Origin: Escherichia coli
Lineage (GTDB): Bacteria > Pseudomonadota > Gammaproteobacteria > Enterobacterales > Enterobacteriaceae
Direction: 5' to 3' (one strand)
Assembly (NCBI RefSeq): GCF_041886205.1
Contig: NZ_CP169029.1
DNA length: 64,000 nt
Of the stretch, positions 21,091 through 62,625 are shown piece by piece (positions within the stretch are counted from its first letter, which is position 1; every line of letters begins with the position of its first letter). The notes under the pieces were generated by a model. The model did no database searches, was not told where the DNA came from, and saw only the letters and a list, made by a program, of their open reading frames with translations. Both the position numbers and the translations under genes were made by a program.

Positions 21091-21885
21091 ATGAAACCGA
21101 CCACCATCTCCTTATTGCAGAAGTACAAACAAGAAAAAAAACGTTTTGCGACCATCACCGCTTATGACTACAGCTTCGCGAAACTCTTTGCTGATGAAGG
21201 ACTTAACGTCATGCTGGTAGGCGACTCGCTGGGCATGACGGTTCAGGGTCACGACTCCACCCTGCCGGTGACCGTTGCCGATATCGCCTACCACACTGCC
21301 TCCGTACGTCGTGGTGCGCCAAACTGCCTGCTGTTGGCTGACCTGCCGTTTATGGCGTATGCCACGCCGGAACAAGCCTTTGAAAACGCCGCAACGGTTA
21401 TGCGTGCCGGGGCCAATATGGTCAAAATTGAGGGCGGTGAGTGGCTGGTCGAAACCGTAAAAATGCTGACCGAACGTGCCGTTCCTGTATGTGGTCACTT
21501 AGGTTTAACCCCACAGTCAGTGAATATTTTCGGTGGCTACAAAGTTCAGGGGCGCGGCGATGAAGCGGGCGATCAACTGCTCAGCGATGCATTAGCCTTA
21601 GAAGCCGCTGGGGCACAGCTGCTGGTGCTGGAATGCGTGCCGGTTGAACTGGCAAAACGTATTACCGAAGCACTGGCGATCCCGGTTATTGGCATTGGCG
21701 CAGGCAACGTCACTGACGGGCAGATCCTCGTGATGCACGACGCCTTCGGCATTACCGGCGGTCACATTCCTAAATTCGCTAAAAATTTCCTCGCCGAAAC
21801 GGGCGACATCCGCGCGGCTGTGCGGCAGTATATGGCTGAAGTGGAGTCCGGCGTTTATCCGGGCGAAGAACACAGTTTCCATTAA
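21091..21885 (+). CDS. panB: 3-methyl-2-oxobutanoate hydroxymethyltransferase
   Basis: ORF 21088..21885 (MMKPTT...); second ATG at 21091 gives the 264-aa form. Confidence 0.95.
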
Positions 21886-21896
21886 GGAGTCACGTT

Positions 21897-22748
21897 GTGT
21901 TAATTATCGAAACCCTGCCGCTGCTGCGTCAGCAAATTCGCCGCCTGCGTATGGAAGGCAAGCGCGTGGCGCTGGTGCCTACTATGGGTAATCTGCACGA
22001 TGGCCATATGAAGCTGGTCGACGAAGCCAAAGCCCGCGCCGATGTGGTCGTCGTCAGTATTTTCGTTAACCCGATGCAGTTCGACCGCCCGGAAGATCTG
22101 GCACGTTATCCACGGACCTTGCAAGAGGACTGCGAAAAGCTAAACAAACGTAAAGTGGATTTAGTTTTCACCCCTTCGGTAAAAGAGATCTACCCGAACG
22201 GTACTGAAACCCATACTTACGTTGACGTTCCCGGGCTTTCGACCATGCTGGAAGGCGCGAGCCGTCCGGGGCATTTTCGCGGCGTTTCGACTATCGTCAG
22301 CAAGCTGTTTAACCTGGTCCAGCCGGACATCGCCTGCTTCGGTGAAAAGGACTTTCAGCAACTGGCGCTAATCCGCAAAATGGTTGCCGATATGGGCTTC
22401 GATATTGAAATTGTCGGCGTCCCGATTATGCGCGCCAAAGATGGCCTTGCGCTCAGTTCCCGTAATGGTTATCTGACGGCGGAACAACGCAAAATTGCGC
22501 CCGGTCTGTACAAAGTTTTAAGTTCAATTGCCGACAAATTGCAGGCTGGCGAGCGGGATCTTGATGAAATTATTGCCATTGCAGGGCAAGAACTGAATGA
22601 AAAAGGCTTCCGCGCCGATGATATTCAGATTCGCGATGCCGACACGTTGCTGGAAGTCTCTGAAACCAGCAAACGAGCTGTAATTCTGGTAGCCGCCTGG
22701 CTTGGCGATGCCCGCCTGATCGACAACAAAATCGTCGAACTGGCGTAA
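21897..22748 (+). CDS. panC: Pantoate-beta-alanine ligase (pantothenate synthetase)
   Basis: 283-aa ORF beginning at GTG 21897 ([10 protein letters not shown]...); HDGH motif. Confidence 0.95.
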
Positions 22749-22779
22749 TGCTTTTACTCTAAATAATTCAAGTTGCAGG

Positions 22780-32270: not shown

Positions 32271-33821
32271 TTATACCGTAAACCCTAACATCATCCCCGT
32301 ATCTTCATGCTCCAGCAGATGGCAGTGCGCCATATAAGCATGTTCTTTCGGTGCATCGTGATTAAACTTCACCAGCACTTCGCTGACATTACCTTCTACC
32401 TTAACGGTATCTTTCCAGCCCGCGCGATGAGCCGCTGGCGGTTTGCCATTTTCTGACAAGATACGGAACTGCGTGCCGTGGATATGGAACGGATGCAGCA
32501 TCATGTCGCCCACGCCAGAGATAACCCAACGTTCGTATTGCCCTTTCGCCGCCGCAAACATCGGCTTGTTCATATCAAACGCCTGACCGTTGATTTTGTT
32601 GGCATGGTGGAAATCGAACTTCCCGCCGTGGTTCATATGATTCATATTGCCGTGCCCCATATGGCCCATCATCTGGCTGTGATCCATCCCGGCCATCGCC
32701 TGATCGCCATATTTCTCCATTAGCATCTGCATCCCCATCATATCGAGCATCGGGTCCATAGAGAGTTGCAGCTTGCGTACCGTCAGCCCTTCCAGCGAAG
32801 GTAACGCAGGCAGGCTACTTAATGTGTCTGGCAAAGCACCGGAGGCACTAATAGCAATCGGCTGAATCCGCATTACCGGATGAGGCTTATCAAACGGCGC
32901 AATCGCCATCCCCATCTGGCTGACCGGCAGCGTCACCAGGTCAAAGGGTTTGTTATCGTTAACCTCCACCAGCACTTCAAAACGCTCGCCCATCAGCACC
33001 GGCAGTTCGCTCACCTTCACTGGTTCAGGTAGCAGACCACCGTCGCTGGCAATCACATACAGCGGGCGATTGTCGCTGGTGGCGAAATTGAGCGAACGGG
33101 CATTACAGCCATTGAGCAAACGCAGGCGCAGCCAACCACGCGGGGCAGCGTGTTGCGGGTAGATTGCACCGTTGGTCAGCAACGTATCGCCAAACCAGCC
33201 CACGGCGGCGGTCATCACATCCAGTTGATAATCAATCTGCCCGTCGGCGCTAAATTTCTTATCCTGAACGATCACCGGAACATCATCGATACCCCACTGT
33301 TTTGGCAGCATTAATTTCAGGATCTCGTCATCTTCAATCACCACCAGCCCAGCCAGCCCCATCGCCACCTGTCGCCCGGTTTTGCCGTGCTGATGCGGAT
33401 GGAACCAGCAGGTAGCGGCAGGTTGATCAACGTTCAACGTCACCGAGCGCTTGCCACCTGGCGGAATAATTCCCTGCGGGCCGCCGTCGACTTCACCCGG
33501 TACTTCCAGCCCGTGCCAGTGCAACGTTGTCTCTTCCGTCAGTTGGTTGTAGATATCAACCGTTACCGCTTTGCCGCGCTGTAATTTCACCGCCGGCCCC
33601 AGCAGATTGCCGTTATAGCCCCAGGTAGTTGCAGTTTTCCCGCCAAAGGTGGACTGGCCTGCGCCAATAGTTAACTGAATGCGATTACGGGCATCGGTCG
33701 TGAGCAAATCAGGGATCGGTAACGTTGGGCGTTCTGCCGCAAATACTGCGCGGCTCCACAGCGGCAAAGCCGAAGCCACACCCAGCGCGACGGAATATTT
33801 TAAGAAATCACGACGTTGCAT
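32271..33821 (-). CDS. cueO: Periplasmic multicopper oxidase CueO
   Basis: ORF 32271..33860; start refined to [18 protein letters not shown] (twin-arginine signal); HCHLLEH copper site; Met-rich insert; 516 aa. Confidence 0.95.
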
Positions 33822-33860
33822 AGTTATTTCCTTATTCTTAAGCAGGCGAAACAAAATCAA

Positions 33861-33900
33861 ACGTTGAGCATAGTCCTTCCCCTTACGGGAAGGTCAAGCC
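33861..33900 (-). promoter_or_regulatory. cueO promoter with CueR operator (19-bp palindrome CCTTCCCCTTACGGGAAGG at 33875-33893) and adjacent TTGACC -35
   Basis: Perfect inverted repeat matching the recalled CueR box, between a -35-like TTGACC and a -10-like element upstream of cueO. Confidence 0.7.
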
Positions 33901-47887: not shown

Positions 47888-48047
47888 GGGTTATTCCTTA
47901 TCTATCTAATAACGTTGAGTTTTCTGGAACCTGTCCCATTGAACTCTCGCCGGAAAGCTCAATAAGACAGGTTCTACGTTTAGTTGCCGCGCTTTTATAT
48001 GCGCTTGATTTACAACATCTTCTGGATAATTTTTACCAGAAAAATCA

Positions 48048-59261: not shown

Positions 59262-59470
<209 letters not shown>

Positions 59471-59476
<6 letters not shown>

Positions 59477-59860: not shown

Positions 59861-59879
59861 TGTCTTAAACCTATAAAAA

Positions 59880-59899
59880 AGGCGCAGAATCCTGCGCCT
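59880..59899 (-). terminator. Hairpin (aggcgcag/ctgcgcct) with T-run on minus strand between secA and mutT; putative partial terminator/attenuator
   Basis: 8-bp stem, 4-nt loop; AAAAAA on plus strand at 59875-59880. Confidence 0.55.
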
Positions 59900-59919
59900 T
59901 TTACTTCAACTGTTAGCTT

Positions 59920-62625
59920 TTATTGCAGGCGACCATGGCACTGCTTGTATTTTTTACCAGAACCGCACGGGCAAGGATCGTTACGTCCTACTTTGCGTTC
60001 ACCGGTTTGCGCCGCCAGTGCAGCTGCGGCTGCAGAGTCGTCATCCTGATGGCTAAGCTGCTGCATTTGCGCTAAACGCTCGGCTTCTATACGACGCTGT
60101 TGTTCCAGCTCCTCAACCTCTTCAGGCATACGTACCTGAACTTTGCTCAGCGTACTGATAACTTCATATTTCAACGACTCCAGCATCGCTGCAAACATGG
60201 AGAACGATTCACGTTTGTATTCCTGCTTCGGATCTTTCTGTGCGTAGCCACGCAGGTGGATACCCTGACGCAGATAGTCCATCGCTGCCAGGTGCTCTTT
60301 CCACAGGGAGTCAAGCGTTTGCAGCATGACGCCTTTCTCGAAGTGACGCATCATCTCAGCACCAACCACTTCTTCTTTACGCTGATACACTTCGATGGAC
60401 TGCGCCAGAATGCGCTCACGCAGCGTCTCTTCATGCAGTTCTGGTTCTTTATCCAGCCACTCAGCAATTGGTAAATCGAGGTCGAAATCGTTCTTCAGAC
60501 GTTCCTGCAGCCCCGGAATATCCCACATTTCTTCCAGCGACTGTGGCGGAATGTAGGCATCAATGGTCGCTTTGAACACATCTTCACGAATGCTGTTAAT
60601 GGTTTCGCTCACATCACTGACATCCAGCAGTTCGTTACGCTGGGAGTAAATGGCGCGACGCTGATCGTTAGCCACGTCATCATATTCCAGCAGTTGCTTA
60701 CGAATGTCGAAGTTACGGCTTTCAACTTTACGCTGGGCGTTGGCAATCGCTTTGGTCACCCACGGGTGTTCAATGGCTTCGCCTGGCTTCATACCCAGTT
60801 TACGCATCATGCCGGATACTCGGTCGGAAGCAAAAATACGCATCAGCGCATCTTCCATCGACAGGTAGAAACGGGAAGAACCAGCATCCCCCTGACGACC
60901 AGAACGACCGCGCAACTGGTTATCGATACGACGGGATTCGTGACGCTCGGTACCGATGATATGCAGGCCACCTGCTGCCAGTACCGCATCGTGACGTACC
61001 TGCCAGTCGGCTTTAATTTTTTCAATTTGCTCTGCGGTCGGATTTTCCAGCGCGGCAACTTCTGCCTGCCAGCTACCACCGAGCACAATATCTGTACCAC
61101 GACCCGCCATGTTGGTCGCGATAGTCACCGCAGCCGGATAACCTGCCTGAGCAACAATCGCCGCTTCGTTGGCGTGGAATTTGGCGTTCAGGACGTTGTG
61201 CTTAATACCGGCTTTGGTCAGTTCGTTTGATACCAGCTCCGATTTTTCGATGGAGATAGTACCCACCAGCACCGGTTGGCCTTTCGCAGTACGTTCTTTG
61301 ATATCTTCAATGATCGCCTGAATTTTTTCCGCTTCAGTCATGTAGACCAGGTCCGGCAGATCTTTACGAATCATTGGACGGTTGGTCGGAACAACGACGG
61401 TATCCAGCTTGTAGATGGAGCTGAATTCGAAAGCTTCGGTATCAGCAGTACCGGTCATCCCCGCCAGTTTTTCATACAGACGGAAGTAGTTCTGGAAGGT
61501 GATCGAAGCCAGCGTTTGGTTTTCGTTCTGGATCTGCACACCTTCTTTCGCTTCCACAGCCTGGTGAAGACCATCGGACCAGCGACGGCCCTGCATGGTA
61601 CGACCGGTGTGTTCGTCAACGATGATAACTTCACCATCTTTAACGATGTAGTCGACGTCACGGGTAAACAGCGCATGAGCGCGCAGCGCCGCCGTTACGT
61701 GGTGCATCAGCATGATGTTGGCCGGAGAGTACAGAGACTCCCCTTCATCCATGATGCCTTCTTTCACCAGCAGTTCTTCAATCAGCACCAGACCACGTTC
61801 GGTCAGGTTCACCTGGCGAGATTTTTCGTCCACCGAGAAGTGGCCTTCGCCCTGGAAGGTTTCGGAGTCTTCTTTTTCCTGACGGATCAGGTGCGGAATA
61901 ATTTTATTCACGCGTTTATACATTTCCGAGCTGTCTTCTGCCGGGCCAGAAATGATCAGCGGTGTACGCGCTTCATCGATCAGGATGGAGTCCACTTCGT
62001 CCACCAGCGCATAGTGCAGTTTACGCTGTACACGTTCTTCAGGACTGAACGCCATGTTGTCGCGCAGGTAGTCAAAGCCGTATTCGTTGTTCGTACCGTA
62101 AGTGATGTCAGCTGCGTAAGCTTCACGCTTCGCTGGTGCTGGCATACCCGGCAGGTTGATACCGACAGTCAGGCCAAGGAATTCAAACAGCGGACGGTTG
62201 TTTTCGGCGTCACGTTGCGCCAGGTAGTCGTTCACGGTAACTACGTGCACGCCTTTACCGGTTAGTGCGTTCAGGTAAGCAGGCAGCGTTGCGGTCAGGG
62301 TTTTACCTTCACCGGTACGCATTTCGGCGATGCAGCGTTCGTTAAGAACCATACCGCCGAGTAACTGAACGTCGAAGTGACGCATACCAAAGACGCGCTT
62401 ACTTGCCTCACGCACCACGGCGAAAGCTTCCGGGATCAGATTTTCCAGCACTTCGCCTTTTTCCAGACGTGCACGAAACTCTGCGGTTTTACCTTTCAGT
62501 TCTTCGTCGGAGAGTTTTTCCATCTCCGGTTCCATGGCATTGATGATGTTGACCACTTTGCGCATCCGGCGCAGGGTGCGATCGTTACGACTACCGAAAA
62601 CTTTAGTTAATAATTTGATTAGCAT
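59920..62625 (-). CDS. secA: Preprotein translocase ATPase SecA
   Basis: 901-aa [26 protein letters not shown]...; C-terminal zinc-binding [14 protein letters not shown]. Confidence 0.97.

Follow-up and report, generated by a model that had tools for sequence, protein, structure and literature searches.

The chromosomal cueO gene of an Escherichia coli genome and its methionine-rich insert

The cueO gene and its surroundings

The window analysed here is a stretch of 64,000 nucleotides of Escherichia coli DNA (contig NZ_CP169029.1), and the features of its cueO gene are collected in Table 1. Translation of the coding segment on the minus strand gave 516 uninterrupted sense codons followed by a stop. 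The frame was checked and showed no frameshift, no internal stop and no loss of a copper ligand. A plus-strand reading of the same segment was rejected, its translation containing many stops; the strand had been left unstated in the sequence-only reading of this DNA, which is refined on this point.

In the program-made list of open reading frames, the cueO frame was prolonged upstream to a TTG codon at position 33860. This start was rejected, as it is located 6 nt past the −10 box of the promoter and would bury the twin-arginine translocation (Tat) motif. The true start is the ATG at position 33821, because the sequence AAGGA is found 7 nt upstream of it, because the −10 box of the promoter ends at position 33867, and because the NCBIfam model and the full-length PDB sequences begin with MQRR. 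The same list contained an 81-amino-acid His-rich frame at positions 32478–32723 on the plus strand, antisense to the Met-rich region. This frame is not a gene but a shadow cast by the many ATG codons of the coding strand, which read as CAT on the opposite strand and so account for its richness in histidine.

The protein is 100% identical over residues 1–516 to CueO of E. coli K-12 (YacK, b0123), represented by PDB entries 1KV7, 1N68, 3OD3, 3NT0, 5B7E and others; experimental structures of this identical protein number in the dozens. The full-length PDB chains 5b7e and 7f0v were 100% identical, with 5b7e chain A aligned over residues 1–516. The chains of the mature form (1kv7, 3od3 and others), which begin at query residue 29, were likewise identical. 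Chains 5b7e, 1kv7 and 3od3 are deposited as ‘Blue copper oxidase CueO’. The NCBIfam CueO equivalog model NF008205 scored 982.9 bits for a cutoff of 525, residues 1–516 corresponding to model positions 1–528 out of 529. Three Pfam domains were found above their gathering scores: PF07732 (Cu-oxidase_3, E = 3.5e-32), PF00394 (Cu-oxidase, E = 1.6e-7) and PF07731 (Cu-oxidase_2, E = 7.1e-25). At the DNA level, the gene was 100% identical to cueO at positions 137083–138633 of a K-12 derivative, the insert was 100% identical to that of MG1655, and the gene order gcd-cueO-yacC-speE was that of the E. coli chromosome. The gene of the window and that of K-12 thus share the 516-residue protein, the gene DNA, the neighbours and the CueR-type promoter, and nothing differs between them. 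The sequence-only reading had called the gene CueO, a name borne out by the identity to the PDB chains, by the NF008205 score and by the annotation of cueO in 5424 of 5426 complete E. coli genomes.

Two related families were considered and rejected. The FtsP/SufI model NF008135 reached 297 bits for a cutoff of 581, and all the copper ligands are kept in the protein of the window, unlike in FtsP. This E. coli paralogue (PDB 2UXT), a cell-division protein that is not known to bind copper, has a Tat-exported three-cupredoxin fold and was aligned to CueO residues 2–342, the match ending before the Met-rich insert. The PcoA/CopA model TIGR01480 matched partially, with 119.6 bits for a cutoff of 478.95. 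The feature is almost certainly the chromosomal cueO gene of E. coli, encoding the reference K-12 CueO sequence with a Met-rich insert made of two parts.

Four motifs conserved in multicopper oxidases of this type, HxH, HxH, HxxHxH and HCHxxxHxxxxM, were found in the protein. All 12 catalytic copper ligands were present (H101, H103, H141, H143, H443, H446, H448, H499, C500, H501, H505 and M510), and the corresponding columns of the alignment read HHHHHHHHCHHM in CueO. The four ligands of the substrate site Cu5 (M355, D360, D439 and M441) were also present, their columns reading MDDM. At the N-terminus, MQRRDFLK, the twin-arginine motif QRRDFLK occupies residues 2–8. The Pfam TAT_signal model matched residues 1–20 with 21.1 bits (E = 2.9e-4), which is 1.6 bits below its cutoff of 22.7. 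The sequence-only reading had pointed to this twin-arginine signal, and the start of the mature chains at residue 29 and the description of CueO as a Tat substrate (PMC11494321) support it. Judging from the motif and the literature, the predicted Tat signal is unambiguous in spite of the marginal Pfam score.

A scan for sigma-70 promoters with spacers of 16–18 bp gave no match upstream of cueO, because the spacer there is of the MerR type, with 19 bp. A dedicated MerR-type promoter pattern had a single match in the window, upstream of cueO, for 0 expected by chance. Within the spacer of this promoter is an inverted repeat whose 7-bp arms match perfectly and are 5 nt apart. On the basis of the known E. 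coli cue regulon, the operator is presumably that of CueR, a member of the MerR family. The over-long spacer and the dyad operator mark the promoter as CueR-type, with a predicted CueR site. On the other side of the gene, in the intergenic region (32176–32249) between the convergent cueO and gcd genes, a perfect 7-bp stem, GCCCGGA-tctc-TCCGGGC, was seen at positions 32232–32249, just past the cueO stop; no T-run accompanies it. Further on, at about 32176–32205, comes a REP-like palindrome, GCCTGATGCGCTACGCTTATCAGGCCTACG. A terminator scan flagged neither the stem nor the palindrome downstream of cueO.

Table 1. Features of the cueO locus, with positions in the window.
Feature	Position	Strand	Basis or remark
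cueO promoter, TTGACC, 19-bp spacer with dyad CCTTCCC-n5-GGGAAGG, TATGCT	33867–33897	−	Dedicated pattern; predicted CueR site
Shine-Dalgarno sequence AAGGA	33829–33833	−	7 nt upstream of the ATG; read from the sequence
cueO coding sequence	32271–33821	−	516 codons and a TAA stop at 32271–32273
Predicted Tat signal peptide, residues 1–28 (MQRRDFLK...AVFA, then AERP)	33738–33821	−	Translation, Pfam, mature PDB chains from residue 29
Copper motif 1, H101-W-H103 (trinuclear-centre ligands)	33513–33521	−	Motif search; His in all listed homologues
Copper motif 2, H141-P-H143	33393–33401	−	Motif search and homologue alignment
Met-rich insert, residues 355–400	32622–32759	−	String found verbatim
Proximal part of the insert, residues 355–379, Met-rich helix	32685–32759	−	Nearly all columns invariant in Escherichia and Citrobacter
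Distal part of the insert, residues 380–400, flexible Met/His/Gly/Asn loop	32622–32684	−	Sole site of length variation among close orthologues
D439-M440-M441, two further Cu5 ligands (D439 and M441)	32499–32507	−	Alignment; role from PMC11494321
Copper motif 3, H443-PF-H446-I-H448 (HPFHIH)	32478–32495	−	Motif search and alignment
Copper motif 4, H499-C500-H501-LLE-H505-EDTG-M510	32292–32327	−	Type-1 Cu Cys, His and axial Met, trinuclear-centre His

The window is not that of K-12, although cueO is identical. Positions 22949–64000 (about 41 kb) were 98.97% identical to MG1655, and the panB-panC stretch at 21091–22753 was only 95.9% identical. Upstream of position 21091 there was no alignment to the compared MG1655 stretch, 106904–156903, which holds the yad fimbrial operon. 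Positions 1–23000 of the window were covered to at least 80% in only 12 of 5426 complete E. coli genomes, and the yad/usher region is therefore a rare allele. Directly after the end of panC, about 195 bp at positions 22754–22948 (…CCCCAGGAGCTTACATAAGTAAGTGACTGGGGTTAGCG…) are absent from MG1655. Judged against the ERIC consensus, this segment looks like an intergenic repeat of the ERIC/IRU type that carries an insertion inside it. Four Rfam matches exceeded the gathering score, corresponding to sRNA tp2, two tandem naRNA4 (CssrE) and STnc40, at positions 47890–48003 (plus strand), 59278–59471 and 59875–59944 (both minus strand). All are commonplace in E. coli, and none has to do with cueO.

The insert and its variation among homologues

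The sequence-only reading had described a Met/His-rich segment ahead of the C-terminal copper site. This segment was recovered verbatim at residues 355–400, with 14 Met, 5 His and 8 Gly in 46 amino acids, and it precedes the C-terminal copper motifs HPFHIH (443–448) and HCH (499–501). The remaining 470 residues of CueO hold 15 Met, so that the 14 of 46 in the insert correspond to a binomial tail probability of about 1e-10; no other 46-residue stretch of the protein is denser in Met. The GC content was 53.6% for the insert compared to 54.7% for the cueO gene, and the Met enrichment is therefore not an effect of base composition. Tandem Repeats Finder detected no DNA repeat in the E. coli insert, and this allele therefore gives no sign of slippage.

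The two parts into which the insert is divided in Table 1 also differ in published structures. The proximal part bears the Cu5 ligands M355 and D360 together with the crystallographic Cu6 and Cu7 ligands M358, M362, M364, M368 and M376 (PMC11494321). Most crystal structures of CueO show disorder in the loop near the type-1 (T1) copper (370–398 in the numbering of PMC6155172), 3OD3 being the only one that resolves it (PMC6155172).

Within E. coli, a 198-bp probe centred on the insert was found at full length and with at least 95% identity in 5430 of 5431 records. The one exception, strain L37, with 88% identity in the insert and a gene of 1533 bp, was rejected as a natural length variant, because its annotation is that of a pseudogene with a frameshift and an internal stop. 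Copies of cueO 98.8–100% identical to the chromosomal gene were also observed on 19 PLSDB plasmids from E. coli and E. fergusonii, several of them from pigs. On the IncY plasmid pE6474.2 from pig faeces (L005, NZ_CP116983.1, 38950–40500), which carries phage portal and head-processing genes, cueO is located between two transposase genes of ISVsa5 (IS4 family), as if a chromosomal cueO had been captured by a composite transposon. The capture of cueO by plasmids was possibly selected by copper feed supplements.

In close orthologues (83–92% identical, mostly from Citrobacter), residues 355–379 were essentially invariant. All the length change was located in the distal loop, which was 3 to 28 residues longer than that of E. 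coli. The Citrobacter orthologues (P0012, P0037, P0009 and P0074, 83–87% identical) share the proximal helix; in C. freundii the longer loop is built of repeats, whereas the E. coli insert has no detectable one.

The family-wide alignment comprised 118 representatives from a library search at 50% identity. All eleven invariant copper ligands, ten His and the Cys, are retained in 115 of them, from which the insert statistics were drawn. The region matching E. coli residues 353–401 varied from 1 to 71 residues in these distant homologues, with a median of 7, and was of 10 residues or fewer in 79 of them. Met made up 18% of the inserts of at least 20 amino acids compared to 3.3% elsewhere in the proteins, and only two representatives reached the 14 insert Met of E. 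coli. The long inserts had unrelated sequences, yet they were usually Met-rich. From these alignments, the Met-rich segment appears as a true lineage-variable insertion in which the composition, and not the sequence, is conserved.

Two E. coli-like CueO sequences of 470–471 amino acids, P0008 and P0011, were rejected as natural deletions of the insert, as their gaps of 45–46 amino acids are located in domain 2, at about residues 233–290. A third E. coli-like sequence, P0002, showed an internal duplication of 47 amino acids and a truncated C-terminus. All three come from metagenomes or short contigs (2 to 7.5 kb), and an assembly artefact is the most likely explanation for each.

The sequence-only reading had also suggested that the length and composition of the insert vary between species and may tune cuprous oxidase activity, and had proposed a comparison of orthologues and assays of insert-deletion variants. 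In the present alignments the segment was present, Met-rich and variable, without any frame error. Experiments on the CueO of Hafnia alvei (PMC12041951) support the tuning, and both of the proposed approaches are already published.

Copper recruitment and gating by the insert

Gene identity, motifs, insert boundaries, enrichment and variation were computed here; copper sites, gating and recruitment are taken from published experiments. CueO couples the periplasmic oxidation of Cu(I) to Cu(II) with the reduction of O2 to water, and its Met-rich domain covers the type-1 copper (PMC11494321). Experiments on the identical protein have established its cuprous oxidase activity and its contribution to copper tolerance (PMC11494321, PMC12510620). 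Crystal structures place Cu5 where the insert meets domain 3, and Cu6 and Cu7 inside the insert (PMC11494321). The importance of Cu6 and Cu7 is disputed among earlier papers (reviewed in PMC11494321), and a multimodal study of 2024 found Cu5 to be the sole substrate site, Cu6 and Cu7 being functionally negligible (PMC11494321). The sequence-only reading had held that such Met-rich segments bind Cu(I) and gate the access of substrate. Both functions agree with the position of Cu5, Cu6 and Cu7 in or next to the insert and with the effect of its deletion on phenol oxidation, given below; for the binding, a collective and transient recruitment is favoured over discrete Cu(I) sites.

The following picture emerges. 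CueO is a cuprous oxidase of the periplasm that belongs to the CueR copper-stress regulon and is exported in a folded state via Tat. At a labile fifth copper site, termed Cu5 or sCu, it converts Cu(I) into Cu(II), which is less toxic. From Cu5, electrons reach the trinuclear centre by way of the type-1 copper, and O2 is reduced there to water. Inserted in cupredoxin domain 3, the 46-residue Met-rich segment is organised in two parts. On the current view, the proximal helix (about 355–379) lies over the type-1 copper, gives M355 and D360 to Cu5 and sterically excludes bulky phenolics. The thioethers of the distal loop (about 380–400) form a transient Cu(I) surface of low specificity, stripping Cu(I) from strong chelators and passing it to Cu5. 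The conservation pattern described above fits this two-part picture, with a conserved helix for ligands and lid and a length-variable loop for the Cu(I) pool.

It is also conceivable, although unlikely, that the insert is chiefly a steric lid or gate providing Cu(I) specificity, its Met being incidental beyond the two Cu5 ligands. Deletion of the insert increases the phenol oxidase activity 33-fold, a lid effect, and leaves the oxidation of free or weakly chelated Cu(I) in place, the insert being dispensable for it (PMC11494321). In addition, the T1 site is uncovered by helix movements in the G304K mutant (PMC6155172). A simple lid, however, would not need 30% Met, and the homologues with inserts of at least 20 amino acids have Met-rich ones in spite of unrelated sequences, which argues for a selection on composition, that is, on thioether ligands. 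The lid is also at odds with the behaviour of the enzyme towards strong chelators: Met-deleted variants lose 80–90% of the activity on strongly chelated Cu(I), with 10–20% left on Cu(I)-BCA, and the Met domain was concluded to facilitate the recruitment of Cu(I) from chelates (PMC11494321).

The CueO of H. alvei (PDB 8R4F; Met-deleted form 8R4H) bears on the same question. It matched residues 29–516 with E = 3.5e-218 and has the same fold, copper centres and Cu5, and a Met-rich domain at the same position, but larger and with more Met (PMC12041951). In a study of 2025, the enzyme with this larger domain was reported to surpass that of E. coli in the oxidation of strongly chelated Cu(I), in correlation with the Met content (PMC12041951), which again speaks against a simple lid. 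The PcoA/CopA oxidases, the Thermus thermophilus multicopper oxidase (2XU9) and the Ochrobactrum CueO (6EVG) also combine a multicopper oxidase core with Met-rich segments near T1. Their Met-rich elements differ from that of CueO in length, in effect and in structure, the one of Thermus being a hairpin. Deletion of the Thermus hairpin left the phenol oxidase and cuprous oxidase activities unchanged (PMC11494321).

A second alternative, which we consider very improbable, is that the insert serves mainly in maturation, by capturing Cu(I) to load the four coppers of the apo-enzyme when copper is scarce, or in docking to a Cu(I) partner in the periplasm, for instance CusF or CopA, rather than in turnover. 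The possibility was raised by the authors of PMC11494321, since Met-deleted variants show little phenotype in vivo; the same authors hold that complementation data disfavour an obligatory partner. The purified Met-deleted enzymes keep their catalytic coppers and were active and crystallised, which does not suit a role in maturation; the PDB matches of the protein studied here include two such deletion-variant structures, 2yxv and 8r4h. Finally, the possibility that the Met-rich string is an artefact of a wrong frame or strand, or a meaningless low-complexity accident, is refuted in spite of the nonsense read on the plus strand and of the His-rich shadow frame, as the 516-codon frame is that of a crystallised protein, insert included, and the near-universal conservation of the insert DNA in E. 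coli and the probability attached to the Met enrichment exclude it.

Under the conditions tested, Met-deleted variants had almost wild-type copper resistance in vivo (PMC11494321; also PMC12510620), and the physiological benefit of the insert is for this reason not fully established.

The distal loop in the CueO family

The Met-rich insert of this window is already known, and the allele is the reference K-12 sequence. The domain has been recognised since the first crystal structure (1KV7) and has been studied by deletion variants, site mutants, electrochemistry and an orthologue with a larger domain. The present check shows that the segment is no translation artefact, and the window adds nothing to the question of the physiological advantage of the domain. 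That the diversity of the Met-rich domain tunes the activity is also already published.

The repeats of Citrobacter concern the CueO family rather than this window. In cueO of C. freundii (L004, 1656–1772), a 15-bp tandem repeat present in four copies, CAATATGAACCACGG, codes for the variable loop as pentapeptide units resembling HGNMN. Two CueO alleles of C. freundii, of 544 and 539 amino acids, differ by exactly one repeat unit, which suggests a variation in copy number by slipped-strand events. In E. coli there is almost no length polymorphism of the insert across 5,400 genomes. We tentatively raise the possibility, without giving it even odds, that the distal loop of CueO is a slippage-prone coding repeat, whose copy number would quickly retune the stripping of Cu(I) from chelators, and of which the E. 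coli allele would be a degenerate and frozen remnant.
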